Positions 32,201 through 51,157 of a DNA stretch of 64,000 nt are shown here, piece by piece. The translations under genes and the position numbers were made by a program. The DNA is taken from contig JBBIML010000006.1 of the NCBI GenBank assembly GCA_037444405.1, positions 96,001 through 160,000 on the forward strand. Direction: 5' to 3'. Below the pieces are notes generated by a model. That model was given only the letters and a program-made list of their open reading frames with translations, made no database searches and was not told where the DNA came from. Within the stretch, counting starts at the first letter, position 1. Every line of letters starts with the position of its first letter. Origin of the DNA: Armatimonadota bacterium (GTDB lineage: Bacteria; Armatimonadota; Fimbriimonadia; Fimbriimonadales; GBS-DC).

Positions 32201-33200
32201 GACACTGGAGCATCCAGAGCGTGCCCCGCTCGATGGTGAATTCCAGATCCATCATATCGCGATAGTGGCGCTCCAGTCGGTCGGCAATCTCCAGAAACTG
32301 CTGATACAGTTCGGGCATCCGCTCACGCAGGGCGTCCAGCGGCAGTGGCGTGCGGACGCCTGCCACCACATCCTCGCCCTGCGCGTTCGGCAGGAACTCG
32401 CCGTAAAGCACCTTCTCGCCCGTGGCAGGGTCGCGTGTGAACGCCACGCCGGTGCCCGAATCGTCGCCCATATTGCCGAACACCATCGCCTGCACATTGC
32501 ACGCCGTGCCCAGATCGTGTGGAATCTTCTCCCGCTCGCGATACACAATCGCCCGCTCGTTGTTCCACGAGCGGAACACCGCCTCAATCGCCATCTCCAG
32601 CTGGACAAAGGGCTCCTGTGGGAACTCTTTGCCATGCTCGCGCACAATCTGTTGGAACGCTTCCACCAGCTCCTTAAGCGATTCGGCGGGCACTTCGGTG
32701 TCCTGCGTCACGCCCAGCCGCGCCTTCAGCTCCGAAAATCGCTCCTCGAACAGCTTTTTGGGGATGTCCATCACCACATCGCTGAACATCATGATGAATC
32801 GGCGGTAGGCGTCGTACACGAAGCGCGGGTTCCTGGTGAGGCGAATCATGCCCTGCGCGGTGCGGTCGTTCAGTCCGAGATTGAGGATGGTGTCCATCAT
32901 GCCGGGCATGGAGAACTTGGCGCCGGAGCGCACGGAGACCAGCAGCGGGTTGTCGGGGTCGCCGAACCGCTTGCCAACCCGCTGCTCGACCACGGCGAGC
33001 TTCTCGCGCACCTCGTCCATCAGGTCGTCGGGCAGTCGCCCGCGGCGCATATAGTCGCGACACACATCGGTGGTGATAGTGAATCCGGGCGGTACGGGCA
33101 GCCCGATGTTGGTCATTTCCGCCAGATTGGCGCCCTTCCCGCCTAACAGGTCGCGCATGTCGGCGCGTCCTTCCTCAAAGAGATAGACCCGCTTCATCAT
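29262..33200 (-). CDS. ppdK: Pyruvate, phosphate dikinase (intein-containing)
   Basis: LLGGKGANLAEM, SVRSGAKFSMPGMMDT, GGMT|SHAAVVARG, EGIGLARTEHMF, FFSFGTNDLTQ, GVCGEHGG; GGAGG RBS. Confidence 0.97.
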   Translation of the reverse strand: MMKRVYLFEEGRADMRDLLGGKGANLAEMTNIGLPVPPGFTITTDVCRDYMRRGRLPDDLMDEVREKLAVVEQRVGKRFGDPDNPLLVSVRSGAKFSMPGMMDTILNLGLNDRTAQGMIRLTRNPRFVYDAYRRFIMMFSDVVMDIPKKLFEERFSELKARLGVTQDTEVPAESLKELVEAFQQIVREHGKEFPQEPFVQLEMAIEAVFRSWNNERAIVYREREKIPHDLGTACNVQAMVFGNMGDDSGTGVAFTRDPATGEKVLYGEFLPNAQGEDVVAGVRTPLPLDALRERMPELYQQFLEIADRLERHYRDMMDLEFTIERGTLWMLQCRVGKRTGRAAVKIAVDMVHEGLIGRDEAVLRVSPAHLDQVLHPHLDEQALTTGEYPLIAQGLGASPGAASGRAVFDARRAIEWSRNEPVILVRPETNPDDVGGMLASKGILTARGGMTCIAGETRVLTDKGLLSAERVFELFAEGAPLKILSFDTRSMRPVWRPIIAAGRRPAEVVRAQVSQTGRSRNNWIRITPDHKMFTVRKCQLCKVPLEAVVHNQEYLLAVDWIPPMGEAHYSTAFAYVLGALLSNGHIRLTPTKGCVVFVQKPTAEKAEFIQRVRDAFQTAFGYSLSEARIRCTRGMLKGRPVEGKVADYICYRREPAVRLAEAIANLTCWVLQADAEALQNFLAGYIDGDGSYSTASRAVRVQIVVSERKPWLLEAIVLACLRLGILPQVSNNRSAYLIQITEGVDQILSRTHRVKAEPPTRLHSTKCFSMRALFGDIVDKVNYHGRVRQAIKRNIMFGVDKIQRDILPICPSDALRDELARLLESPLRSMRVSLAPEREESIVYNFEVDATDELDKNYIVFSSQLTPILVSNSHAAVVARGFGIPCVVGCEAISVDEENALFSVEVGGETLTVREGDYISIDGTTGRVYLGSVPTQAPEIGAEMATLLKWADQFRRLRVRANADTPQDAAKALEFGAEGIGLARTEHMFFGEERLPIVQEMILAKTAKERREALSRLLPFQRADFLGIFEVMRGLPVTIRLIDPPLHEFLPRYDDLLREVVQLELTAPDSPELDEKRRLLQRVEELMEANPMLGLRGVRLSILYPEIVEMQVTAIMEAAAEAQRRGYDPHVEIMIPLVGHVNELKVVRDNLERVAKEVMAHEGVQIDYKFGTMIEIPRAALTADEIAQHTQFFSFGTNDLTQTVFGFSRDDAEGKFLAYYVEQKILPENPFVTLDREGVGKLIEMAVRAGRAVRRELKIGVCGEHGGDPASIEFFHELGLDYVSCSPYRVPIARLAAAQATLRRRVAVTVDK
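30585..31847 (-). mobile_element. Intein with LAGLIDADG homing endonuclease domain (421 aa)
   Basis: Block A CIAGETRV, block B TPDH, endonuclease motifs YVLGALLSNG and FLAGYIDGDG, block F VYNFEV, terminal VSN followed by +1 Ser. Removal restores GGMTSHAAVVARG. Confidence 0.95.
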
Positions 33201-33241
33201 TTCAACCTCCTGTTGATCGTGGATTGTTTCTGGCGGGAACA

Positions 33242-33430
33242 TGGCAGGGCGAGACTCGGCGCCCAGTTCCAGCCTCGCCGCGTCGCGAAAGCGGACACCC
33301 CCACCAGCTGAATTCTGGATGGCTGACGCTGCGCCTTAGCCGATAAGCGCGCTTCAGCCGCCCAGCAACGCACCTGCTGAAATCGTCCATTCTGGGGCAC
33401 CGCTGCCCACACCCTCTTAGACGCCCTCCG
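33242..33430 (-). ncRNA. Candidate ~190-nt rod-shaped RNA (6S-like RNA or structured ppdK leader)
   Basis: Nested helices: 33422-33428/33245-33251, 33392-33402/33257-33266, 33354-33365/33315-33326, plus an apical hairpin; promoter directly upstream. Confidence 0.45.
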
Positions 33431-37376: not shown

Positions 37377-40300
37377 TCACGCCGACTGCGTCACCTGTTG
37401 CCACTGGCTCTGAGGCACCTGATAGCGCACAATCTCCCGAATCTGTTCGGGCTGGAGACGGCTGGCAGGGTTTTGAATCATGTGGAGTTGGGGCTGCTCG
37501 CTCGCGTGGGTGATGATGTAGAGCCAGTATTCATCGCCCAATCGCTGCGCCATAATCCACTCGTTGGGGGTCAGCACAATATCGCCTGTTTGGGCGCGTG
37601 CTTTCACCTCGATGTAGCGAACCGTGCCGTCGGGCGCTTCAGAGCGAATATCATAGCCGAGATTTTGCGCCGAGACATCCACGGGATTGCGCCCCTGTTG
37701 ACGCTCGTACTCCATCGCCACCTGCATGCCGATTGCCTCAACTTCGGCATCGGGCGTCATTCCTGACTGGGGCTTCGGGAGAACCTGCGCGACACCCAGC
37801 AGCTCAGGTGATTGCATAGAGAGGCTCTGCTCGCGTGCAATTTCCTGTTCCAGCGCGGCGAGCCGCTGTTCCGCCTCCACTTTGCGACGCTGGGTGTTGG
37901 CAATTTCTGCCTCAGGGATGTTTTCGCGCATGGAGTATTCTATCAGTTTATCGTTTAGTTCGCCAATTCGGCGATTCAACGAAGCGACACCGTACTTGCG
38001 TTTAATCTCAGCAAGTTGGGTTCGGGTTCGGCTGAGCTCGTCACGGAGCGGCATCACGAATTCCCGCATCAAAAACGCCCCTATAGAAGCCGTATCTGGC
38101 TCTGGGATCGTTGTGGGGGGATTCTGGGCTGGTACAAGGTCCCACAGGATTGCAGGGGGCACGAGGCGCGGTGTGCCATCCTGTGCCACATACACTGTGG
38201 CAATCTGCTGGGCAGCCGTGCGATTGTTGCCATCGCGGAGTTCGACACTGTAGAAGTAGAGCCAGCCGTCCAGTTTGCCGTCGGGGTCGTAGAAGGTGGC
38301 ACCGCGTTGGCAGGCGTCGCGGCTGGCTTCGCGCAGGCGCTCCCCAATCGCCTCCAGCAGGGGGTGCCCGGGCGCGATGAATTCGGCGCCTGAGGCGCGC
38401 GCCAGCTCTTTGCGAAACGCCAGCCTCTGATAGCTGCCTTGCACCTCACCATAGGTGCGTTTGAACGCCTCTGAGCGATGGCGCAGCTCAAAAGGCACAT
38501 TCGGCACGCTCCAGAGACCAGCATGCGAGCGCCGCGCACCGATTTGCAGATGCTGGCATGCTCGCTCAAAAAACTGCTCCACATACTCAGGCACGAGTCG
38601 GTTCTCGCGGGCGCGGCGCTCCTCCCCCACAATCGCCTGCATGTCGATGTGGCGTGTGGCTAACGCCTCCTGAGTGGCTTGCTGCACCTTCTCTATCAGC
38701 GCTCGGTCAGGCAGGGCGCGAATCGACTCCACAATCTCCTGCCAGTTGCGTCGATTCGTCACGGCGTCGATAATCAGCTCGCGCAGGTCGCGCTCCAGCA
38801 AATCGCCAATCACATCGAACACGCGGTCGGTGCCCATCTGCTCGCGGATGCGTTCCAGCTTTTCCAGCAGGGTTTCCAGCACCTCGCCCTCACGCGTGTC
38901 GTGCGCCACGAGGTTATAGATATGCACCTCTCGCGTCTGCCCATAGCGATGGATGCGCCCCATGCGCTGCTCCAGGCGGTTCGGGTTCCACGGAATGTCG
39001 TAGTTGACCATCAACGAGCAGAACTGCAGGTTAATGCCCTCGCCCCCCGCCTCGGTGGAGACCATCACTTGCGTCTCGTGGCGAAACTCATGTTCCGCCT
39101 GAATGCGCGCGTCGAGGTTCATGCCGCCGTGCAGCTCGGTGACGCTGTAGCCCCAGCTGCGCAGTTTCTTCACCAGATAGTCCAGCGTATCGCGCGATTC
39201 GGTGAAAATCAGCAGTTTCTCGTTGCGCCCGAGCAGTTGCAGTTCGTCCAGCACCTCACGCAGTTCCTTGAGCTTGGTCTCGATGCCCTGTTTCTCGGCT
39301 TGTTTTGCAAGTTGTACCAGATGGCGAAGGGTATTCACCTCCTGCTGAAGTTCTGCCTGCGTGGTGGCGTTGGTGAGCTTTTCAAGGAGCTCGTCTTCAA
39401 TCTTGAAGCGCTCTGCCTCTTCCAGCTCTTCCAGCTCCTCTTCGTCGTAAGGCAGTTTGCCCTGCCCTTGTTCGGTGAAGCGGATTCCGAGCTGGAGATA
39501 CTCTTCAAGGCGCTTGAGCCGTCTTTCGAGGGACTGGCGCGCGGCGTAGATGCTGGAGGCAAAGCGTCGCTGAAGCATCAGCAAGGCGAACGCCACATTG
39601 CGGTTCTCGCCCTGAAGCGCGCGTCCATACTCGCGCTCCACATACTCGGTGAGCGCGTTATACAGCTCCTTCTCGGCGTCGCTCAGTCGGAAGGTGCGCG
39701 TGAACACATGGCGCGGCGGGAACAGCGGGCGTCCCGAAAAATCTTTCAAATCCTCCTTGAGCCGCCGCAGATAGAGGGGGTTATCGCGCTGCACTATCGA
39801 TTGCTGCAGCGACTCCACCGTTCCGAAAAAGCCCGGACGGAGCAGGTCTAAAAACAGTCGGAAGTTTTCGGGGTCGCCGCGGTGCGGGGTGGCGGTCAGG
39901 AACAGAAGCCCATGCGTGCGCATCGAGAGCAGTTCGCCCAGCCGATAGCGGGCGGTTTTGTCGGTCTTGGAGCCATACTGATACGCCGCCATCTTGTGCG
40001 CCTCGTCCACAATCACCAGATCCCAGTGCGCTTCGTGCAAAGTCGCCATCACATCGGGCTGTTTGGCGTAGTCCATCGAGGTGATAATCTGGTTCTGGTC
40101 TTGCCACACATTGTGTCCCCAGTAGGCGTCCATCACACCTCTGTCCACGACGACAAACTGCTCATCGAACTTCTCTTTCATCTCGCGTTGCCACTGGTAT
40201 TTCAGGTGTCCCGGTACCACCAGCAGCACGCGCCGCGCCACGCCACGATACTTCAGTTCTTTAAGCAACAGCCCCGCCATGATGGTTTTGCCCGCGCCGG

Positions 40301-40706
40301 GGTCATCTGCCAGCAGGAAGCGCACATCAGGCTGGCGCAGAATGTAATGATAGACCGCCTCAATCTGGTGAGGCAGGGGGTCTATTTGCGACACATTCAC
40401 CGCGAGCAGGGGGTCAAAGAGATAGGCATAGTGCAGGCGGTACGCCTCAATCCCCAGGAAAAAAGCTTCAGGGTCGCCCTGAAAGTCGCGCATCAGGGGC
40501 GCTTGAATCTGCCACTGAGCAAGGTCAGCCTCTGAGAAAACGCCGTCGTAGGCTTGTTTCGTACGCACGCCCTGCGCGTAGATTTGCCAGAAGCCGTCCC
40601 CAAACGGCTGCACCTGCACCACGCGCACCGGTTCACGAAAGTGGCTCGATTCGACGATGCTCCCGATGGGCACAGGCAATTGGCTCGCGCCCTGCATCGC
40701 GCTCAC
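37377..40706 (-). CDS. SNF2-family helicase with C-terminal DUF3883 nuclease-like domain
   Basis: LLADDPGAGKT, VDEAH, LTATPH, STEAGGEGINLQ, EQRMGRIHRYGQ; C-terminal GYDIRS..YIEVKAR. Confidence 0.92.
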   Translation of the reverse strand: MSAMQGASQLPVPIGSIVESSHFREPVRVVQVQPFGDGFWQIYAQGVRTKQAYDGVFSEADLAQWQIQAPLMRDFQGDPEAFFLGIEAYRLHYAYLFDPLLAVNVSQIDPLPHQIEAVYHYILRQPDVRFLLADDPGAGKTIMAGLLLKELKYRGVARRVLLVVPGHLKYQWQREMKEKFDEQFVVVDRGVMDAYWGHNVWQDQNQIITSMDYAKQPDVMATLHEAHWDLVIVDEAHKMAAYQYGSKTDKTARYRLGELLSMRTHGLLFLTATPHRGDPENFRLFLDLLRPGFFGTVESLQQSIVQRDNPLYLRRLKEDLKDFSGRPLFPPRHVFTRTFRLSDAEKELYNALTEYVEREYGRALQGENRNVAFALLMLQRRFASSIYAARQSLERRLKRLEEYLQLGIRFTEQGQGKLPYDEEELEELEEAERFKIEDELLEKLTNATTQAELQQEVNTLRHLVQLAKQAEKQGIETKLKELREVLDELQLLGRNEKLLIFTESRDTLDYLVKKLRSWGYSVTELHGGMNLDARIQAEHEFRHETQVMVSTEAGGEGINLQFCSLMVNYDIPWNPNRLEQRMGRIHRYGQTREVHIYNLVAHDTREGEVLETLLEKLERIREQMGTDRVFDVIGDLLERDLRELIIDAVTNRRNWQEIVESIRALPDRALIEKVQQATQEALATRHIDMQAIVGEERRARENRLVPEYVEQFFERACQHLQIGARRSHAGLWSVPNVPFELRHRSEAFKRTYGEVQGSYQRLAFRKELARASGAEFIAPGHPLLEAIGERLREASRDACQRGATFYDPDGKLDGWLYFYSVELRDGNNRTAAQQIATVYVAQDGTPRLVPPAILWDLVPAQNPPTTIPEPDTASIGAFLMREFVMPLRDELSRTRTQLAEIKRKYGVASLNRRIGELNDKLIEYSMRENIPEAEIANTQRRKVEAEQRLAALEQEIAREQSLSMQSPELLGVAQVLPKPQSGMTPDAEVEAIGMQVAMEYERQQGRNPVDVSAQNLGYDIRSEAPDGTVRYIEVKARAQTGDIVLTPNEWIMAQRLGDEYWLYIITHASEQPQLHMIQNPASRLQPEQIREIVRYQVPQSQWQQVTQSA

Positions 40707-43341
40707 TCCTTCTCCTCGGTTTCAACTTCCGCCTGGATCTGATTCAGCGTCTCCCGTATACTGATGTCCACAAGGCTTTTGGGAATCTCCCCCTGCACTT
40801 CCAGCTCGATGGTGAAGCGGAAATTCAGCCCTTGTCGCATGAGGGGGGTCAGGACGCCCTGTGCCAGCTCATAGGTCTTCGCGCTGGACACCGAGGCGCG
40901 CAGTTTATAGCGCCGATAGCTGGGCTGCTCCGTGGACGCAGGCGGCGGTAGCGGCTCGACCTGATGACCATCGCTGACAGCCACTGGCTGGGCAGGCTCG
41001 CGCTCCGGCGGCACCTCTTCGGGCGTCGGCTCAGCCGAAGAGACAGCAGGCGGCTCCTTCAGCAGCGTGGCGTCGTAATTCAGCGCGTCCATCGGAATCG
41101 GCTGTTGGTAATACACGCGCTCTCCCACCCGTACAGCAAACGCGCCCTCCTGAACACCGCGTCGAATCGCCTGAAACACCACCTGCTCATTCTCCACTAT
41201 CGGCAGATGGGTGTAGCGGAAGAAGGCATCCACGATGTCCTTAACCGAAACCTCGTTCGTGTCAGCGGACACAGCCTTATCCAGTATCATTCGGGGCGAG
41301 ATTTGCTTCAGGAGCAGGTCATCATGCTCAAGGAATTGTCGCACGCGCTGGCTGAGCGTCTCCCGCGTGCCCGCGGTGGGCGTGCCCAGCGAGCGCCAGT
41401 CCAGCCGACCATCCCGTAGTAAAGCCACATGGCGATAGGCGTTCAGCGCCTGAAACTGCTCGCTTCCCAGAAAATCCTGAATGCGGCGATTGACCGTGTT
41501 TTTATCTTCGTCGCTCAAGGTTTCCCAGAGTGCCCGCTCTCTCTTGATTCGCTCGTACGCGAGGCGTTCGCGCACGCGGTTCTGCAGATTGGCTAAGTGC
41601 TGCTCGTCGGCAACCAGGAACACGAGCGTGTTGCGGAAGGTGCGTGGCTTTTCGCCTGCCGCGCCAAAGAGCGTATCCAGCAATCGCTCCGTTTCGGGGT
41701 GAGCGCGTGTGTAATCGGGCGCCAGCACGCCCAGCTTCAGCTCGCGTGTGTCGGGAATGTCATCGGGGCGCTCAGAAAAGAGCAACACCTTCGGGAACGC
41801 GCTTCCTGCATACTTACGAATCGCCTCCCGAACCGCCTCATCCACCTCCGACTGAGTAACCTGTTCCTGCTTGTCCAGAACAATCTTGTTCAGATTCGGC
41901 TGGAGTCGGAACTGGTACAGCCCGTCTTCGTAGTGGAGGTACCAGAGCTTGCGGGTGAGCTGGTGTATCGCCTCGCCGAGTATCGCTGTTGGCAGGGTGG
42001 GGTTCAGGGCGCACAGGCGCAGTTCGGCTTCGGAGACGCCGCGCTTCTCGCCCGCGCTGAACCCGCCAAAGAAGACGGCGGTCGCCAGCCCGCGCGCCAC
42101 CTGATGCGCCTCATATTCCGCGCCCAGCTGCTTCTCCACCATCCGCGCCTGCGCCGAATCGCCGATGATGTCCCGCTGAATCACCGAGGCGAACTCGTTG
42201 CCGATGTGGCGCAATAACTCCTGCTGAATCGCGCCGTTCGCCAGATTGATGTGAACGGGCAAGATCAGCGGCTCCGCCACACGACGCCGATAGAGGTCGC
42301 TCAACACCTCGCCCAGCAGTTTCAGCACGCCGCGCGTGCGTTGAAAATTTTGAAACGACGCCCACTTCTCGTAAAGCAGGTCAATCACCTCAGGGTGGAA
42401 GGGATAGGCAAGGCGCATGCGTTCCCGATAGGCGTCGGTGCGCGCCTTTTCGGGGAGCTGCTCCGCATGCCGTTGATACAGCTCATAAAACGCATCCACC
42501 GTGCGGCGTACTTCTGTCGGGTCTGCAATCTCCCTGAACAGGCGTGGCGAATCACATGGAAAAACTCATCCTGCTCTACAGGCGTGTAGATGGCTTGCAC
42601 GCGCCCGAAAATCATCTCCAGCTGGCGTAGCACGCGCTCGCCCTCTTCCCCGTAGGGCGCGCTGCTGGGAAGCGTCGCCACCAGCACGCTGTGTGGGAGC
42701 GATTTCACCACTTCGGTGAGCTGCTGGCAGAAGACCATCACCTGCTCCTGGAAGTCGCGGGCGCTCACGGCGTAGGTAGCCAGCTCGTCCATCAGGATGA
42801 GCGTGGAGGCGTCTCCCAGCATCGCGCGCAGGTTCTCGGCGCCGGGCGCCCGACGCTTGCGGTCATGCTCTTCCAGCAGGTCGTATCGCCCCAGCTGCTC
42901 CGCAAACAGCCCCCAGGGGGTTTTGCCCCGAATCGTATCGTACTCTGTGCCAACGAAGGTGAGGATGCGCACTTCAGGCAGTTTGTCCACCTGAGCGCGT
43001 TCGAGCGTATGCCGAACCAGCGGCGCCTCGCGGTGCGTGTCGCCGTGCCGAAACAGGTGGTAGAGGCTAATCAGCGCGTGCGTCTTGCCCCCGCCAAAGG
43101 GCGTTTGCAGTTGAATCACCGCATCGCCATGCCCCGTGGTCAGGCGTCGCACCACCTGCGCGAGCAGATTCAACAGCCCTTCCGTCGGATAGGTCTGCTG
43201 GAAAAACTTTTCGGGGATGCGATATTCCAGCGCGCCGCGCTCCTGCAACACATCGCGCAGGTCCGCCGCGAACATCGAATCATCCAGCTCACCCTGCAAA
43301 ATGTCTTCCCTCGGAATCGCGACCTCATACCATGCTTTCAT
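40703..43341 (-). pseudogene. DUF499 AAA+ ATPase, one frameshift near 42546
   Basis: FAADL, QTPFGGGKTH, LILMDE; one base missing in ATT CGC CA- CGC CTG TTC (IRxRLF); continues AYPFHPE, FQRTRGVL. Confidence 0.85.
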
Positions 43342-43384
43342 GGGGTTCACCCTCAGGGAAAGTTATACCACATTTTACATCCTC

Positions 43385-46252
43385 TCACACCTCCCAACGA
43401 CGGCTGAAGCCCAGCAACCCCTGCATCAAACGACGCTCCGAATCCCCCTCCGGCAACGAATCCGCCACCGCCTGCGCCAACATCCACAACACCCGATCCC
43501 GATGCAAACCCTCACGCTCCAACCACGCCACCAAACGCCCCGTCTGACCCGACTCCCACATCCACGCCGCCAACTGCAACGCCTCTACCTTGCTCCCCTT
43601 CGCCCGCGCATACAACGACTCCCACAACGCCTCCGACGCCTCGTTCGGCTTCTCCTCCATCTCCCAACCCATCGCCAACTGCTCAGGAGCCGCCCGACGA
43701 CGACCCCGCACCGACACGCCCACCAAACCCCGCCCCCACGCACGCTCCAACGGCGACACCACACGCACCCGCTTGCTCTCGCCCCCCCTTGCCCTGCGCA
43801 GGCACAATCACACGCCCCTCACCCCACACCGCCGTCAACTCCAACCCCACGCTCACCGCCAACTTGCGCGCCTCGTCAAACGGCACCTCCGCGTGCCCAT
43901 ACGACCACCGATACAACAGATAAAACTGCGACAGCGCGTCCAACTCCACCACCACCTCCCGCTCCCGCAAAATCCGCTCCAGCGCATAACGGCTCACCTG
44001 CTCCCGCACCAGCGTGAGCAACACCGACGCCCCCACCGCCTTCCCCGACGCCCGCTCCACACGCGCGTACTGCCCGAACACCGCCAGCGCCGGACCAATC
44101 GCGCTGATGAACAGATCCGCCCCCCGAACCCCCGCGTCCCAGAACTGGTGCAGGCGCCGCTCTATCGCGTCCACAATCTGTGGCTTGAGGTCGCCCCAGA
44201 AGCCGACGCGCGCCCCCACCCGCTTGCGACACACCAGATAGATAGACGACGCCAGCGCGGCGTTGCCCTGCGCCAGCAGGCGCGCCTGCATTTCAGTGTG
44301 TATCGGCAGGGCGGCGGTGGGGTAGAGACCTGCCCGCAACAGCGCGTTCAGCACCGTTTCCCACGCTTCGGTGGTCTTGTGGGCGAACACGATAATCGCG
44401 ATGCCGTCGGGCTTCAGCACGCGGTGCATCTCGCGGAACGCCTGCTCCAGCATCGCTTCAAACTGCTGTTTGGCGGCTTCCCGACTGCCCACGCGGTAGG
44501 CGTCGGCGACCATTTCCTGCGATTTGGGGGTGAGGGGTGTGGCGAACAGGTCGGGGTGCAGGTCGCCGATCGTGCGTTTGAGCCACACATAGAAGAAGTC
44601 AGAGAGGACGGCATAGTTCACATTATCGTAGTAGGGCGGGTCGGTGAAGATGGCGTCGAAGTGGTTATCGGGATAGGGCAACTCGGTCGCCGTGCCGTGA
44701 AGGGCTTTCGGGGGCGTTTCAACGGATGGAATAGCGCAGAGGTGGTCAAGTACTCTAACGGTGTCTTGAAATACTTCGTGCCAGCTCCGCGATGCCTCTC
44801 CTAACGGGTTCGATTCCACATAGTCCCACAGCATCGGGATTGCTTGGCGGGAAAAAGTATCCGCTATCTTTTCACCTACTGGTTGCCAGCGGCACACCGA
44901 AGAGCTTGCTGACGCCAGCCTGTCGAAGTTTAGTGCCAAATAAGTGCCACTGCTTTGGCGAACTCGGCGTCCGCGCCCTGCTCCACCATCAACCGATACG
45001 CCCGACGCACCCCCTCCGCAAACACCAGCAACGCCAAACGCTGACGCGCGTTGAACAAATCTCCAAACTCGTACATTTTGTAATGCAAAACTGCCATCTG
45101 GTTTCCGCCAGTGCGAACGAGGCGTTCATTCGGCACAGGCTCTATTCCCCACTCCGCTCGCAGGCGCGCCTCCCACTCCGCCAGCGCCGACCGCGCCCGC
45201 TCAAACACCGCCATATCCTCCGCCGTCGCCAAACGATACCTCTTGCCCGCACGATCCGAATAGTGCAACACCACCGCCACCAACCGCTCCCCCGCACGAC
45301 CCGCCTGAAACAACGCCCGAACCCGCTTGTCGTCCGTCGTCTCCCCACACACAGGACACCGCGCGTGCGCCCGCACCACCGTGCCCTGCTCCGGGTCAAA
45401 ATCCAATCCCTCCCCCTCCACAATCTCAAAATCCACCCGCTTCGCCACCTTATCGGGCACAATGCGCAACGCAACCTGCTTCTTCTCTTTCTTCACCAGC
45501 CAGGTCTGGCGCATCAGCGGGATTTCCGCCCCACAAATCGGGTTCTGGCACGGTATCGTGCGCGCCCAGAGGTAGCCCACAGGGATAGCACCGTCGGGGT
45601 CGGGCGGATAAAACGGCTCCAGATGTTCCCGCGCCCATTCCAGCACCCACTCACCATATGCCGCCACCGCCTCCACCAGCGGCGACTGGCGGCTCTCCGC
45701 CTCCAACAGGCGCAGCCCCTCCCCATTGCCCGACGGCAACACCACACGAAACGCCCCCGACGCCCCAAACCGCTGCGGATACTCCAGCACACAGCGGTTC
45801 AGCAACACCGCCAGCGGGTTATAATCCAGCGCGTGCGTCTCGCAGCCCAGCCGCAACGCCTCCAGCGGAATGCTCCCCCCGCCTGCAAACGGGTCCAGCA
45901 CCCGCGGCGCCCGCCCCCCATACGCCTCGCGAATCAGCGCCCGCGCTTTTTGCAAGTTCGGGTTCTTCGCGTTCTGTACCGCCTCAAAGGGGGTGAGCGC
46001 CTCAATCAGCTGGAGCCACTCGTGGCGTCGGCTGGGGCTGTCGGGCAACAGCGCCGCCAGTGCCGTCGCCCGCGAGGCTGCCAGCGGGCGGCGCGCCCAG
46101 TAGATATGGAGCGTGCTGATGTGCCCGTGTCGGAGGTTCTTCTCGCGGGTCGACTCGGCGGAGACGCGCTCCAGCGGAAAGACGGTTTCAATCAGGCGCG
46201 TCTGGCGTTCCTCTGGCGATAGGTTCTGAGCGTACATCATTCTGATGTTCAT
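43385..46252 (-). pseudogene. DUF1156 DNA adenine methyltransferase, frameshifts near 44947 and 43785
   Basis: LHIYWARRPLAASR, DPFAGGGSIPLEA, FTDPPYYDN; three ORF pieces rejoin with a 1-bp insertion (AVA-TYLAL) and a G7-to-G6 change. Confidence 0.88.
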
Positions 46253-46344
46253 CTCGTACCTCCTCACTTCTATTATACCCTATCTGTATTTTCGGCAGGG
46301 GGGAGGGCAGATTCCTGCAGAGGTTTTTGCTCCTTCCCCCGTAT

Positions 46345-46420
46345 TCTCTCCCCTGCAGGTGGGAGAGGGCTGAACGAACCTCTCTTTCCGCAGGGGAAAG
46401 GATCGGGGTGAGAGGGGTCA
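46345..46420. repeat. Two palindromic repeat units between serA and the DUF1156 module
   Basis: ctctcccctgcaggtgggagaggg and ctctttccgcaggggaaaggatcggggtgagagggg. Confidence 0.75.
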
Positions 46421-47998
46421 GAACTGCACCACGCGGGCGCTTTCGACGCCCTCTAACTGTCGAATCTGGGTCAGCACATCGGGCGGGATGGGGTCGTCCA
46501 CCTGCAGCATCATGACGGCGCGCCCGCCGATGCACTCCCGCCCCACATGCATGCCCGCGATGTTAATCTGATGGCTGCCTAACAGCGTGCCCACACGCCC
46601 GATGATGCCCGGACGGTCGTGATGCTCTGTCACCAGCAGGATCCCTTCGGGCTTGATGTCGACGAACAGGTCATCCAGGTGGGTGATGCGCAGGTCGTGG
46701 CGTCCGAACACGGTGCCGCTGAGCCGCTGTTCGCCCTGCGCGGTGGTGGCGATGGTGGTGAGCGTGTCGGGATAGAGTTCCGATTCGGCGCGGTGGCTCC
46801 ATTCCAGTTTCAGCCCGCGCTGCTGGGCGATCAGGGGCGCGTTCACGAGGTTCACCGGCGTATCGGTCGTGTGGCTGAACAGTCCGACCAGCGCGGCGCG
46901 GGCAATCATATCGAGCGGGATGCCCTCCCAGTCGCCCGCGAAGCGCACCTGCAGCTGCTCGACGGGCGCGTTCAGCAGCTGGGCGTGCAGGCGTCCCATG
47001 CGCTCGGCGAGCTGCAGGTAGGGCTGAACGCGCTCGCGCTGTTCAGCGGGGATCGGCGGTAGGTTCACCGGGCTGCGCGGCACGCCCCCTGTCAGCACCG
47101 CGACAATCTGCTCTGCCACATCGAGGGCGACCTTGACCTGCGCCTCTTCGGTGGACGCGCCCAGATGGGGCGTCAGCACATTCTGGGGCTGGTGCAGCAC
47201 GCGCAGGTCGCCCGGCGGCGGCTCCTGCGGGAACACATCGAGCGCCGCGCCCGCGACATGCCCTGAATCGATCAGCTCCGCCAGCGCGTCCAGATCGATC
47301 AGCTCGCCCCGTGCGCAGTTGATGATTCGCACGCCCGGTTTAGCCCTCGCCAGCCGTTCGCGATTGAGCAGGTGGTGGGTTTCGGGGGTGAGCGGCGCGT
47401 GCAGGCTGATAAAATCGCTGCGCTGGAGCAGTTCATCCAGGCTGACTGGCTCTGCGCCGAGTTGCTGGATGTGGGCGGGCGGCACGAAGGGGTCGTACGC
47501 CAGCACCTGCATGCCGAACGCGCGGGCGCGACGGGCGACCTCCCTGCCAATCTTGCCGATGCCGATGATGCCGAGCGTCTTCTTGTAGAGTTCGGCGCCG
47601 ATGAAGGCGCTGCGTTTCCATTCGCCTGCGCGCACGGAGCGGTCGGCTTGCGGCACTTTGCGGGCGAGCGCGAGCAGCAGCGCGAAGGTCAGCTCCGCCG
47701 CCGCAATCGTGTTGCCTTCGGGCGAGTTCACCACCACGATGCCGCGTCGGGTGGCGGCGTCCACATCGATGTTGTCCACGCCGACGCCCGCCCTGCCAAT
47801 CACCTTGAGGCGCGTGCCCGCCTCGATCAGCGTGGCGTCCACCTGCGTCTGCGAGCGCACCATCAGCGCGTCGTAATCGCCGATGATTGTGAGCAGCGGC
47901 TCACGCGCGATACCGGGGCGATACCCCACCTCGCCCGCCTGTCGCAGAATCGCCAGCCCCTCCTCGGCTATCGCGTCGCTCACCAGTATGCGCGCCAT
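46418..47998 (-). CDS. serA: D-3-phosphoglycerate dehydrogenase (with ASB and ACT domains)
   Basis: RAGVGVDNID, GNTIAAAE, GIGKIG, INCARG, TPHLGAST, DRPGIIG. Confidence 0.96.
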   Translation of the reverse strand: MARILVSDAIAEEGLAILRQAGEVGYRPGIAREPLLTIIGDYDALMVRSQTQVDATLIEAGTRLKVIGRAGVGVDNIDVDAATRRGIVVVNSPEGNTIAAAELTFALLLALARKVPQADRSVRAGEWKRSAFIGAELYKKTLGIIGIGKIGREVARRARAFGMQVLAYDPFVPPAHIQQLGAEPVSLDELLQRSDFISLHAPLTPETHHLLNRERLARAKPGVRIINCARGELIDLDALAELIDSGHVAGAALDVFPQEPPPGDLRVLHQPQNVLTPHLGASTEEAQVKVALDVAEQIVAVLTGGVPRSPVNLPPIPAEQRERVQPYLQLAERMGRLHAQLLNAPVEQLQVRFAGDWEGIPLDMIARAALVGLFSHTTDTPVNLVNAPLIAQQRGLKLEWSHRAESELYPDTLTTIATTAQGEQRLSGTVFGRHDLRITHLDDLFVDIKPEGILLVTEHHDRPGIIGRVGTLLGSHQINIAGMHVGRECIGGRAVMMLQVDDPIPPDVLTQIRQLEGVESARVVQF

Positions 47999-47999
47999 C

Positions 48000-48047
48000 T
48001 CACTCATTATTATTATCCATGAACGCATACAGCTTAGCTTCGTCCAT
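48000..48047 (-). other. 15-aa upstream mini-ORF abutting serA
   Basis: GAGGAGG RBS then MDEAKLYAFMDNNNE*; the stop is 1 nt before the serA ATG. Confidence 0.4.
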
Positions 48048-48166
48048 CGTTGTTCCTCCTCTTGAGTGTTGTGGGAGCTCACGCGGTTGCATGTATACCA
48101 TAAAAATTACACCTCACCAAAAGCCTTTTTGCCAAGATCGATCGCACATTTCAATTCGGGAACTTT

Positions 48167-49108
48167 TCATTTGAATCGCTGGTAGGCTGACCATCGCTGA
48201 TGCTCCATGCTGCCTTGACCAGCCATACACCAGCTCCGTACAGGGCACCTTGTGCAGTCTGGACTCGCTTCAAAACACCATTTCATAGCAACATGGAACG
48301 CACCTTCATCCACAAACATCGGCACCACTTGAGGTACTGATTGCACTCTCTTCTCTATGGAGCCTCGCATGTTCTTGGCTACAATCACATAGGGACGCCC
48401 CGACTCGTAGACTACATCCTCTATCACGCCCGTCCGACAAAAGACTTTACCGACATGTCCATCTACAACCATGAGTGTTTCTCGCATATCGATATCCAAC
48501 TCCCGCCATTTTTCCACAAAAAGCCAGACCAGCCAGCTGGTCAGCATGCGAGCAGCTTTCGGATCATTGCCAACCCACCCGCCCTCTAAAATAGAGTGTT
48601 CACGCAAAAATGCCCAAAGAGAGTTTACACCGTCCTGAAGCCGACTTCTGGACAGTTCATACAGACCAGTACCGTCTGGCAGATTACGAACGAGAAAAAT
48701 AAAAGTGGCGAATCTATATAGAAACAGCGACAGTGGTTTGATGCCACCCAATGCACCAACACGATAAAGCTCTCTGCCTTTTCGACCACCGATTTCTCGG
48801 AAGATATCCAGCACATCTCCGAATCGCTGCTCCACCGTATCAGGCTGGTATAGCAGTGTATCTCCAAATCTGGCGAACAGCTCGCGTACGAACTCTCGTA
48901 TTTTGCCGGTGTCGCCTTGCTGATTGAGTAATGAACGCAAAAGCAGGTAACGAATGATGCTTTCTCTGTTTTCGATGGGTAGCTCCTCAGGCAGCGCCAT
49001 GCTCTCGCGCCACTGCCCCTTCCATGTACGCCGACCAATCTGTTCCAGATGCGAAATTAACTCTTTTCGCTGATCAGGCTCGAGAGCTTCTTGTTTTACC
49101 TTTGGCAT
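48167..49108 (-). CDS. Divergent HhH-GPD (Endonuclease III-like) DNA glycosylase with [4Fe-4S] motif
   Basis: HhH-like GWVGNDPKAARML, VDGHVGKVFCRTG, and C-X6-C-X2-C-X5-C (CFEASPDCTRCPVRSWC); low-GC codon usage. Confidence 0.7.
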   Translation of the reverse strand: MPKVKQEALEPDQRKELISHLEQIGRRTWKGQWRESMALPEELPIENRESIIRYLLLRSLLNQQGDTGKIREFVRELFARFGDTLLYQPDTVEQRFGDVLDIFREIGGRKGRELYRVGALGGIKPLSLFLYRFATFIFLVRNLPDGTGLYELSRSRLQDGVNSLWAFLREHSILEGGWVGNDPKAARMLTSWLVWLFVEKWRELDIDMRETLMVVDGHVGKVFCRTGVIEDVVYESGRPYVIVAKNMRGSIEKRVQSVPQVVPMFVDEGAFHVAMKWCFEASPDCTRCPVRSWCMAGQGSMEHQRWSAYQRFK

Positions 49109-50072
49109 TACGAGCTGATGACCTCCTCTTTTTGACCTGGTCGGAGAGCCAGGTACGCAGGCGTTGAGCATCATCGCGCACGGTATACTCAAATCTCACA
49201 TCGTCCAGTAAAGAAGGGCTATCGACACCAACTTTTGCCCGAATGATGGGTAGCAGTTCGCTGTCGATTTCGTAGCCGATGCATGGGCGTCCGAGGCGAT
49301 ACGCTACTCGCATCGTTGTGCCACTGCCCAGAAACGGGTCCAGCACCGTCTCGCCCTTATAGGAGAACAACAGCATCAGACGCCGTACCAGCTCTTCTGG
49401 AAATGCCGCGATGCCTTCTTCCAGCCGTCCCTGCAACGGCAATACATTTGTTATCTGCCATACATTCAGGTACCATTTTTGTTTTTGATACTCAACTAGA
49501 TCGATTCGGGACTCTTCACGCCTGCCGGCGCAGATGCGTTGATAATCGAAGCGACCTTTCTGGAAAATCAGCACGCTCTCCTGTACATTATCCGGGTAGT
49601 AATAGAGCGGGTATGGATGCTGAAGAATCACCCCACTGCGACGGCTGATGCGGATATAACCCTCTGGTTTAAGCCAGACGATGCGATCCCGATAGCGGAA
49701 GCCCGCCTCCAGGAAGATTCGGGTCATGTCCGCAACCACAGGGTAGCGCTCGCCGTCGACAAGCACATCGTCGCAAACGATGCAGGCAACGCGCCCTTCC
49801 TCCAGCACACGCCAGATTTCCTGTGCCACGGCACGCATCGATTCGAGATAAGCCTCGTAGCTCTGGAATAGGTTGGGATAGTCAAATGGGGCATTGAAGT
49901 AGGGTGGGCTGGTGAGAACCATCTGCACCGACCGTTCGGGCAACTCTGTCATATTCCGCGCGTCGCCGAAAATCACGCGCAGAATGCAGCGCTCTGGCGC
50001 ACCTGCCTCTGGGGTATCAGCGGCTCGGTTCGCCAGACCATTCTGAATTGGTCGCTTCGCTGGCATGGTCAT
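49074..50072 (-). CDS. Beta-class N4-C/N6-A DNA methyltransferase
   Basis: Motif IV LTSPPY precedes motif I VLDPFLGSGTT; AAFPEEL; GYEID. Confidence 0.92.
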   Translation of the reverse strand: MTMPAKRPIQNGLANRAADTPEAGAPERCILRVIFGDARNMTELPERSVQMVLTSPPYFNAPFDYPNLFQSYEAYLESMRAVAQEIWRVLEEGRVACIVCDDVLVDGERYPVVADMTRIFLEAGFRYRDRIVWLKPEGYIRISRRSGVILQHPYPLYYYPDNVQESVLIFQKGRFDYQRICAGRREESRIDLVEYQKQKWYLNVWQITNVLPLQGRLEEGIAAFPEELVRRLMLLFSYKGETVLDPFLGSGTTMRVAYRLGRPCIGYEIDSELLPIIRAKVGVDSPSLLDDVRFEYTVRDDAQRLRTWLSDQVKKRRSSARNAKGKTRSSRA

Positions 50073-51157
50073 CCCCTGCGTTGCATGAAGTCGAGCATGA
50101 AGTCGCGCAGCGCCTGCACGCCTTCGAGGGGCATGGCGTTATAGATCGAGGCGCGGCAGCCGCCGACGGAGCGGTGTCCCTTCAGCTCGTACAGCCCGTT
50201 CGCCTGCGCCTCCTGCAAAAACGCCTTCTCCAGCTCCTCGCTCGGCAGTCGCCAGGTCACATTCATTACGGAGCGGCATTCGGGGTGCGCATGCCCGCGA
50301 TAGAAGCCCCCACTCTGGTCGATCACCTCATACAGCAGGCTCGCCTTCTGGCGATTGAGCTGCTGCATGCGTTCCAGCCCGCCGATCTCGTTCAGCAGCC
50401 AGCGCGTGACGAGCATCACGATATAGATGGCGAACACGGGTGGCGTGTTATACACCGATTGATGCTCCGCTTGCAGGCGATAGTCGAGCATGGCGGGCAG
50501 GTTCGGTGGCACGCGCTCCAGCAGGTCCTCCCGAATAATCACGATGGTGACGCCAGCGGGTCCTGCGTTCTTCTGGGCGCCAGCGTAGATGAGCGCGTAG
50601 CGTTCGATGGGCAGTGGGCGCGACAGGAAATCGGACGAGGCGTCGCACACCAGCGGCAGGTCGCCCACAGGTGGCTCCTGCTGAAACTCCACGCCCTGAA
50701 TCGTCTCGTTGGAGGTGAAATGCACATAGGCGGCGTTGGGGTCGATGTCCAGTTCGTCGGGGCGTGGGGTTCGGGTGAAGTTCTCGCTTTTGCCTGACCA
50801 CGCGATGCGCGCCCGCCCGACCTTGAGCGCCTCTTGAAATGCCTTCTCACCCCATGAACCCGTGAGGATATAATCGGCAGAACGGTCGCCCAGCAGGTTC
50901 ATCGGCACCATCGCGAACTGCAGGCTCGCGCCGCCCTGCAAAAACAGCACGCGATAGTGAGCGGGGATATTCAGCAGCCGTCGCAGGTTCGCCTCCGTCT
51001 CCTGCAAAATCGCATCGAACCATCGGGAGCGGTGGCTGATCTCCAGCACCGACATGCCGACGCCTGGCAGCGCCAGCAAATCGCGCTGCGCTTCCTGCAG
51101 CACGGGCAGCGGCAACACCGCTGGACCCGCCGAAAAGTTCCACACTCGCTCTGGCAT
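50069..51157 (-). CDS. serC: Phosphoserine aminotransferase
   Basis: NFSAGPAVLP, SHRS, LQGGAS, YAGAQKNAGPAG, GHRSVGGCRASIYNA. Confidence 0.97.
   Translation of the reverse strand: MPERVWNFSAGPAVLPLPVLQEAQRDLLALPGVGMSVLEISHRSRWFDAILQETEANLRRLLNIPAHYRVLFLQGGASLQFAMVPMNLLGDRSADYILTGSWGEKAFQEALKVGRARIAWSGKSENFTRTPRPDELDIDPNAAYVHFTSNETIQGVEFQQEPPVGDLPLVCDASSDFLSRPLPIERYALIYAGAQKNAGPAGVTIVIIREDLLERVPPNLPAMLDYRLQAEHQSVYNTPPVFAIYIVMLVTRWLLNEIGGLERMQQLNRQKASLLYEVIDQSGGFYRGHAHPECRSVMNVTWRLPSEELEKAFLQEAQANGLYELKGHRSVGGCRASIYNAMPLEGVQALRDFMLDFMQRRG

Follow-up and report, generated by a model that had tools for sequence, protein, structure and literature searches.

Restriction by base excision is known from the PabI family (R.PabI, R.HpyAXII, R.CcoLI), in which, according to the accessible portions of two accounts, an amino-methyltransferase has as its partner an enzyme that removes an unmethylated base from the recognition site, and the DNA is broken by apurinic/apyrimidinic (AP) lyase activity or by heat; such pairs are mobile and occur in (hyper)thermophiles (PMC10273834, PMC5809426). 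Here we describe a two-gene cassette in a 64,000-nucleotide stretch of DNA from an Armatimonadota bacterium (assembly GCA_037444405.1, contig JBBIML010000006.1, positions 96,001 to 160,000), referred to below as the window. The cassette is composed of a methyltransferase gene (MT; 332 amino acids (aa), 49074..50072, minus strand), defined from the open reading frame (ORF) list and a PF01555 match, and a gene for a 313-aa glycosylase-like partner (GL; 48167..49108, minus strand), defined from the ORF list, homologue search, alignment and predicted structure. MT and GL denote genes as well as proteins, and G000 denotes the host genome. With a probability of roughly 0.55, we read the cassette as a restriction–modification system in which an HhH-GPD (helix–hairpin–helix) glycosylase, probably also an AP lyase, serves as the restriction enzyme.

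The available text of a 2023 review treats PabI as the only restriction-glycosylase superfamily and leaves HhH, helix–hairpin–helix and endonuclease III unmentioned; it also records that the abasic sites made by R.PabI break spontaneously in the heat (PMC10273834). In the part of a 2025 restriction–modification review that was accessible, the glycosylase passages cite only PabI papers for Type II base excision. The literature on restriction glycosylases since 2021, to the extent of its available text, comprised PabI-family studies, reviews or unrelated papers only, and no paper was found that joins a restriction glycosylase or base-excision restriction with a helix–hairpin–helix or an iron–sulfur cluster. 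An HhH-GPD restriction glycosylase was likewise not found in the open literature searched, REBASE and subscription journals lying outside that search. The PabI family and the cassette share the same proposed logic, similar behaviour as a mobile pair and, as far as the accessible PabI literature goes, an occurrence in (hyper)thermophiles. Their folds differ: PabI, the HALFPIPE fold, is described in the accessible sections of the review as a curved antiparallel β-sheet ‘half pipe’ homodimer (PMC10273834), whereas GL is predicted to be an all-α HhH-GPD protein with an iron–sulfur loop, and the two have no sequence relationship.

The repair enzymes endonuclease III (EndoIII), MutY and Mig match GL over the whole fold (Z 12–15), carry the same C-X6-C-X2-C-X5-C arrangement and, if Lys184 of GL is placed as predicted, a conserved Lys opening the second HhH helix, and have the Asp motif VDGNV or VDTH where GL has VDGHV. 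GL differs from them in scoring below the curated thresholds, in approximately 90 inserted residues and in invariant motifs of its own (NQQ and VGALGGIKP); it is mobile, is linked to MT and is no housekeeping gene. Mig, an HhH-GPD enzyme for T:G repair, is found beside a C5 methyltransferase and a separate endonuclease; the C5-cytosine methyltransferase partner that marks a Mig/Vsr-type system, with a product that deaminates to give a T:G mismatch, is missing from the cassette. Qng1 (DUF2419) gives the best superposition on GL by aligned length, is similar in size and has the same Lys–Asp spacing of 32, but it acts on a nucleotide and not on DNA and has no sequence similarity to GL; the MutY-type Cys loop of GL is, to our knowledge, absent from Qng1. 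An EndoIII-type domain has also been recruited to anti-phage defence, as proposed here for GL, in the END nucleases, whose EndoIII-type domains, in the accessible text, no longer have their catalytic residues, are joined to a nuclease, act against hypermodified DNA and are accompanied by no methyltransferase (PMC12191111). Unlike these domains, GL keeps its catalytic residues, stands alone at 313 aa and is linked to MT.

Prokaryotic genomes, one for each species, were scanned and yielded 40 loci (the first set, set A), 36 of which have DNA upstream of GL; the other four begin inside GL. An orthologous MT, 55–78% identical to the window MT, adjoins GL in 32 of these 36 loci, where it is co-oriented upstream in 31, usually overlapping, and divergent in 1. 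In the remaining four, GL is present only as fragments no longer than 141 residues. When ORFs of at least 90 aa from the 40 loci were clustered all against all, the recurrent clusters were GL (39 loci), MT (34 loci) and antisense shadows of these two genes; no third conserved gene was recovered by this clustering, and flanking genes were common only among near-identical Fervidibacter genomes.

A second GL subfamily, of approximately 300 aa and 26–32% identical to the window GL, keeps the catalytic-type Lys and Asp and the Cys residues and lacks GNDP and VGALGGIKP. A scan with six proteins of this subfamily gave 68 metagenome loci (the second set, set B). From each flank of GL in these loci, the longest ORF inside 700 nt was taken (104 ORFs), and 75 of the ORFs were scanned with Pfam, those omitted being mostly under approximately 110 aa. 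A PF01555 gene is adjacent in 52 of the 68 loci according to Pfam, and tblastn adds L098, L108, L114 and L123, so that MT is adjacent in 56; ten of the other 12 loci are short contigs ending near GL. The gene order is mostly GL followed by MT, with a gap of approximately 200 nt. The two genes are convergent in six loci (L059, L061, L062, L065, L089 and L104), and L060 is the single second-subfamily case in which MT precedes GL. Five of six MTs sampled from this subfamily are 55–62% identical to the window MT, no more distant than the MTs that accompany the first subfamily; the sixth, from L065, is approximately 25% identical and falls outside the window MT clade. Judged by these identities, a single MT clade is the apparent partner of two GL lineages that have diverged to approximately 30% identity, and GL therefore diverges much faster than MT (55–62%), as in restriction–modification systems. 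The conserved linkage to methyltransferases of the N4-cytosine or N6-adenine type for which the earlier note on this DNA had suggested looking is thus present in 32 of 36 genome loci and 56 of 68 metagenome loci, and the homologues are not, as a family, unlinked.

In a sample of 401 genomes of the host phylum, which partly overlaps the first set and is not independent of it, MT genes with 60% or more identity to the window MT occur in 19 places. GL is intact in 13 of them, broken or reduced to a remnant in 4, absent in 1 (L139) and cut by a contig end in 1. None of the eight MT matches at 34–40% identity in this sample is accompanied by GL, and no classical nuclease was found in the GL slot beside an orthologous MT anywhere in it.

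Several loci have unusual neighbours. On the metagenome contig L099, an Ogg-type 8-oxoguanine glycosylase gene (3119–3889; PF22175, 2.6e-35) lies directly upstream of a GL homologue and MT. L122, whose GL homologue is 27% identical to P0136, has as neighbours a 597-aa DUF6884-domain protein and an unassigned 435-aa ORF (coordinates of note 2086–3876 and 4001–4855), and may represent a differently wired branch of the GL family. Two Armatimonadota metagenome-assembled genomes (L027, 3173–4774; L033, 5956–7060) encode a C-terminal GL fragment (residues ~172–312, 62–65% identical) followed by a different PF01555-like methyltransferase ORF, an arrangement that could be left over from a cassette or have arisen by recombination.

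GL has no match above threshold to any Pfam, NCBIfam or PADLOC model and none to PF00730 at E ≤ 0.1. It scores 13.9 bits against EndIII_4Fe-2S (E 0.07; cut-off 20.5) and 22.2 bits against mutY (TIGR01084; 8.6e-5; cut-off 286.5). Against the PDB, sequence searches returned MutY-type enzymes only, and only over residues 206–303, with E 0.006 from a single sequence and, from a 41-sequence GL profile, 2e-5 for MUTYH, 3e-4 for Escherichia coli MutY and 0.014 for ROS1; comparison with the host genome’s own Nth by hhalign gave 85% and E 6e-6. Homologues at E ≤ 1e-3 number 180 in a set of 5.8 billion proteins, and 56 representative clusters were recovered among 1.84 billion; nearly all stem from metagenome-assembled genomes. 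GL defines a new, sharply delimited family of roughly 250 known members; viral contigs yielded no relative.

The AlphaFold model of GL, computed from 31 homologues (pLDDT 92.9, pTM 0.92), is nearly all helical, with three strands of 2–4 residues each. The top 50 Foldseek matches to the model are all EndoIII, MutY, Mig or NTHL1, with E-values reaching only 1e-3. Endonuclease III (1orp) superposes by VIA-align with Z 15.3 and rmsd 3.3 over 213 of 213 residues, spread across model residues 8–302, and the other HhH-GPD enzymes follow: Mig (1kea) at Z 13.6, MutY at approximately 12.5 and ROS1 at 12.2. As EndoIII residues 1–213 align across GL residues 8–302, the approximately 90 extra residues are insertions and do not form a separate N-terminal domain; in the predicted structure, GL is a single HhH-GPD fold with approximately 90 residues of insertions. 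The earlier note had recognised HhH-GPD hallmarks in this protein, had seen no nuclease motif in it and had described a long unrecognised N-terminal region. Fold, catalytic-type Asp, conserved Lys and Cys loop were all recovered, AlphaFold and Foldseek returning HhH-GPD and not some other fold for the 313-aa protein, and no nuclease domain is present; the N-terminal region as a separate entity had to be abandoned.

The residues expected of an active site and its cluster loop occupy three segments of GL, all of them quoted in the earlier note. GNDPKAA (residues 180–186; 48551..48571, minus strand; alignment and model) contains Lys184, which opens helix 184–200, the predicted second helix of the HhH. 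Lys184 would be the equivalent of the EndoIII nucleophile Lys; the sequence alignments of GL to MUTYH and Nth stop short of it. The segment VDGHVGKVFCRTG (residues 215–227; 48428..48466, minus strand; alignment) contains Asp216 and the invariant Lys221. Asp216, in VDGHV, falls on the Asp of VDGNV when GL is aligned with MUTYH and E. coli MutY, and on VDTH in the Nth that the host genome encodes. The iron–sulfur cluster loop, C278-X6-C285-X2-C288-X5-C294 (48227..48277, minus strand; sequence), has its four Cys aligned with the cluster-loop Cys of MutY, MUTYH and Nth. Lys184, Asp216, Cys285 and Cys288 are invariant in a 31-sequence alignment, with Cys278 and Cys294 conserved in at least 90%; across 41 sequences from both subfamilies, a set that takes in relatives only ~20–30% identical, Lys184, Asp216, Lys221, Cys278 and Cys294 are conserved in at least 90%, and Cys285 and Cys288 are invariant.

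The spacing between Lys184 and Asp216 is 32 residues, compared with 18 in the host genome’s own Nth. Titles of Qng1 PDB entries name K199 and D231 mutants, a spacing of 32 that equals that of GL and hints, short of residue-level correspondence, that Lys184 is the active-site Lys. A Gly-rich loop, VGALGGIKP (residues 117–125; 48734..48760, minus strand), is near-invariant and family-specific, and its residues 118–121 are the sole internal low-confidence stretch of the model. This loop is missing from the distant GL subfamily, which makes it a candidate DNA- or site-recognition element.

MT matches PF01555 (N6_N4_Mtase) at 5.2e-41 over model positions 1–219 of 221. Its best match among the PADLOC Type II methyltransferase models is MTase_II PDLC03353 (2e-72), and the closest solved structure is 2zie, a putative modification methylase of T. 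thermophilus (1.3e-25). Motif IV, SPPY (residues 55–58, within TSPPY; 49899..49910, minus strand; sequence), is followed towards the C terminus by motif I, DPFLGSGTT (residues 245–253; 49314..49340, minus strand; sequence), which is the β-class order and bears out the class first assigned to this gene. With SPPY and FxGxG-type catalytic motifs both present, MT is a DNA methyltransferase of site-specific type. SPPY is the mark of N4-cytosine enzymes and DPPY that of N6-adenine enzymes; the motif suggests that the product of MT is N4-methylcytosine, and hence points to cytosine as the base that GL would excise. In L063 and L070, MT carries an N-terminal HTH_17/MerR domain (Pfam), and autoregulated restriction–modification methyltransferases carry such N-terminal HTH domains. 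The sequence specificity of the MT clade was sought among the best 120 of 4843 matches, which bear generic names only. SuaI (GG-m4C-C) was considered as a possible characterised relative, and the accessible text on it is silent about the fold of its endonuclease (PMC5809426).

The GL reading frame spans 48167–49192, and the conserved ATG at 49108, a start Met common to 30 of 30 aligned homologues, gives the 313-aa protein. The 3′ end of MT overlaps the 5′ start of GL by 35 nt (49074..49108, minus strand), as had been read originally and as the ORF coordinates show; comparable overlaps of 23–38 nt occur in L003, L010 and L015. The overlap suggests translational coupling. Both genes lie on the minus strand, and the cassette is indeed AT-richer than its surroundings, with a GC content of 52.5% (GL 49.9%, MT 54.7%) against 62.3% for the window and 62.5% for the genome. 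It is bordered upstream by serC (phosphoserine aminotransferase; 50069..51157, minus strand; PF00266 at 2.8e-42), whose stop codon overlaps the MT start (ATGA), and downstream by serA (D-3-phosphoglycerate dehydrogenase; 46418..48082, minus strand; PF02826, PF00389, PF19304 and ACT domains), which is separated by 84 nt from the GL 3′ end at 48167.

GL is present in 2 of 151 genomes of the host’s class, both of the same genus, the second carrying an identical cassette in the same place as G000. The hosts of the 40 loci are spread over many phyla of bacteria and archaea. By record titles, the bacterial hosts include Armatimonadota/Fervidibacter, Thermodesulfobacteriota, Kryptonium, WOR-3 and Sumerlaeota, and the archaeal hosts include Thermoproteota, Archaeoglobales, Thermoplasmata and ANME-1; most of these lineages look thermophilic. 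The patchy, cross-domain distribution and low GC content, both read from sequence, identify the cassette as an apparently mobile, horizontally acquired element. No empty insertion site was recovered from six relatives, in which synteny is broken and serA does not lie within 6–7 kb downstream of serC, and no flanking direct repeats were found around the cassette. Three canonical PF00730 genes occur in the host genome, Nth and MutY among them, and the PF00730 model misses GL, which is therefore an extra, non-housekeeping paralogue. A genome of the same genus (G001; serC 92% identical) carries beside serC a 36-aa remnant of the MT C terminus (L053, 5785–5892), which is 67% identical, and is otherwise without the cassette and without GL. 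It seems that the cassette was once carried here and later lost.

Where a restriction gene is toxic, it is expected to be inactivated earlier than its methyltransferase. In the first set, GL is broken beside an intact MT in six loci, and the lesions are independent. L022 and L025, from unrelated hosts, have TGG to TGA changes at invariant Trp178 and Trp192, respectively, while the remainder of GL and the adjacent MT look intact. The reading frame is shifted in L030, L034 and L036, and L035 has an internal deletion. The two TGA changes appear to be recent point knock-outs. Both genes are broken in L024 (a nonsense codon in each) and in L039 (GL without residues 217–266), and MT is broken beside an intact GL only in L014, a low-coverage contig. 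Recoding of TGA in L022 and L025 was considered as another explanation and rejected: ORFs of the L022 locus are long under the standard code, and TGG to TGA is a single transition.

We favour restriction as the role of the cassette because GL is linked near-exclusively to one MT clade, in variable gene order, and evolves faster than its partner; because the pair is spread patchily across domains, with no other conserved effector and with the catalytic residues of GL retained; and because no requirement for a dedicated repair enzyme is known to follow from amino-methylation. The cassette would act as a mobile, Type II-like restriction–modification module, in which MT, as a β-class amino-methyltransferase, would mark a specific sequence in host DNA. 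GL, which would not be a phosphodiesterase, would flip out and excise an undamaged, unmethylated base at the same target sequence, with Asp216 as the catalytic acid/base, and Lys184, or possibly Lys221, would form the Schiff base that leads to AP-lyase nicking. Abasic sites or nicks on both strands would break incoming DNA, helped by the spontaneous breakage of abasic sites at the high temperature of the host habitats, and N-methylation of the target base would block excision by GL. We infer base excision, sequence specificity, methylation sensitivity, lyase activity and a defence role for GL. The fuller proposal, to which we give about even odds, is that the cassette represents a second class of restriction glycosylase of independent origin: an HhH-GPD [4Fe-4S] repair enzyme turned sequence-specific, which removes a normal unmethylated base, probably cytosine, is restrained by an N4-cytosine methyltransferase, and occurs as at least two deeply diverged subfamilies with one MT clade in thermophilic bacteria and archaea.

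Several observations weigh against a restriction function. HhH-GPD glycosylases are not known to us to excise undamaged bases of normal pairs in a sequence-specific manner, and the structural match of GL to endonuclease III (Z 15.3) is tied by Qng1/DUF2419 (7u07; Z 15.6 over 248 residues). Linkage has exceptions in both directions: L122 and L124 encode distant GL homologues that keep the Lys, Asp and Cys residues with no MT within approximately 4 kb, and the orthologous MT of L139 has no GL within 1.5 kb. The second set reverses the tally of gene decay, GL being broken and MT intact in L061 and L120, both genes broken in L119, and MT broken with an intact GL frame in L108, L114 and L123. The same multiply frameshifted MT of L114 and L123 was found in two metagenomes, so the pseudogene is real; GL of these loci has Gly269Ser at a near-invariant position, a change that may or may not inactivate it. 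The totals of eight loci with GL broken and four with MT broken do not differ significantly for genes of similar length.

A recognition site was sought by k-mer avoidance, as observed/expected counts in the host genome and the pooled loci, and none emerged. In G000, ACGT occurs at 150 sites against approximately 5783 expected (ratio 0.026), GGCC at 494 against approximately 17974 (0.027) and CTAG at 159 against approximately 3224 (0.049); the six-letter sequences GTGCAC, ACGCGT, GAGCTC and CTCGAG have ratios of 0.12–0.19. This avoidance of ACGT, GGCC and CTAG, ~20- to 40-fold, is the same in cassette-less relatives (six loci served as controls), which implies that these lineages have long been exposed to several restriction systems. 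In the pooled loci, the ratios are 0.15 in set A and 0.75 in set B for CTAG, and 0.20 and 0.48, respectively, for GGCC; no palindrome of four letters is depleted in set A and set B alike, and no 6-mer palindrome stands out.

GL might instead be a methylation-associated repair glycosylase, like Mig.MthI or Vsr beside 5mC methyltransferases, that corrects lesions or mismatches such as deamination products at MT target sites, with MT as a solitary epigenetic enzyme. GL does sit in a repair superfamily, with Mig (1kea) as a structural match at Z 13.6, a dedicated repair partner would also show tight linkage to MT, and the intact GL frames beside a dead MT (L114/L123 and L108) or without one (L122 and L124) indicate that GL is not obviously lethal when MT is missing. 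The partner, however, is a PF01555 SPPY amino-methyltransferase and not a C5 enzyme, PF01555 being found in all 52 Pfam-scanned second-subfamily partners. N4-methylcytosine and N6-methyladenine deaminate to uracil and hypoxanthine, both dealt with by general repair, and we know of no site-specific repair need that amino-methylation would create. It is not evident how a solitary methyltransferase and a repair gene would spread as the cassette does, a mobile pair scattered across domains (2 of 151 genomes in the host’s class), and identities of approximately 30% for GL against 55–62% for MT would be out of the ordinary if GL were a repair enzyme dedicated to a single lesion. Mig itself, in the accessible text, has Tyr in place of the Lys of bifunctional enzymes (PMC9945173), a Lys that GL keeps. 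On balance we regard a repair role as unlikely. It is improbable, in our judgement, that GL is a partner of MT that excises nothing, whether as a base-flipping DNA-binding or target-recognition subunit or as a regulator, in a complex for modification only or with another effector. The overlap and co-variation of the two genes would fit such a role, as would the inactivated EndoIII domains that, in the accessible text, act as DNA-modification sensors in END nucleases (PMC12191111). Those sensor domains, as far as that text goes, have lost their catalytic residues, whereas the Asp, Lys and cluster Cys of GL are invariant or nearly so in both subfamilies; no conserved effector gene lies nearby, and the variable gene order, including convergent genes with ~200-nt spacers, does not suggest an obligate MT/GL complex.

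Still less weight falls on GL as an enzyme for modified bases, either Type IV-like, against hypermodified phage DNA, or as a ROS1-like eraser of the MT mark. Phage-defence DNA glycosylases exist, Brig1 and a 5hmC glycosylase being described in the accessible literature, and ROS1 matches GL in structure (Z 12.2) and by profile (E 0.014). A modification-dependent enzyme needs no methyltransferase, however, and GL is almost never found without the one MT clade; an eraser of the host’s own abundant mark would fill the chromosome with abasic sites, and nothing specific supports an attack on modified phage bases. The similar length of Qng1 (7u07), its place in the top VIA-align rows and the shared Lys–Asp spacing of 32 would also allow GL to be a nucleoside or nucleotide hydrolase of the Qng1/DUF2419 type (queuosine salvage) that lies beside MT incidentally. 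We consider this very improbable: GL has no Pfam match at E ≤ 0.1, DUF2419 included, and no 7u07-type sequence match in the PDB at E ≤ 10, its significant sequence matches are only to MutY, MUTYH and Nth and extend to the iron–sulfur loop, and linkage over approximately 100 loci means that the adjacency of GL and MT cannot be incidental.

If GL is indeed a restriction glycosylase, base-excision restriction would have evolved at least twice, the second time from the commonest DNA-repair glycosylase scaffold, and HhH-GPD would be the second restriction-glycosylase fold after PabI. GL would then be the first HhH-GPD enzyme to read DNA sequence and excise an undamaged base, would add an iron–sulfur restriction enzyme, and would offer a thermostable sequence-specific glycosylase as a potential tool. 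The ‘orphan’ methyltransferases of many uncultured thermophiles would have cryptic restriction partners, to which searches built around nucleases, among them those with the PADLOC, Pfam and NCBIfam models of this analysis, would be blind. Should the proposal be wrong, GL would still be a new protein family with a near-obligate, unexplained tie to one methyltransferase clade.

Approximately 150 bp beyond serA, the window encodes an Hma (helicase–methylase–ATPase) defence system (37377–46267, minus strand), a setting that counts in favour of a restriction role for the cassette. It is made up of HmaA (37377–40706, minus strand; 1.1e-213), HmaC, split in two ORFs (40703–42499 and 42385–43350, minus strand; PADLOC), and HmaB, a DUF1156 methylase also split in two ORFs (43683–44939 and 44930–46267, minus strand; PADLOC). 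As two of its three genes are each in two ORFs, Hma may be in decay here. Positions 43217–44300, over the 3′ end of the split HmaB, show a very strong GC skew that reaches −0.52 and, on the plus strand, long shadow ORFs rich in Pro and Arg. Farther away, a 1326-aa ORF of pyruvate phosphate dikinase type (29262–33242, minus strand) has a LAGLIDADG_3 match at residues 693–749, between the AMP/ATP-binding and mobile domains, which suggests an intein insertion.

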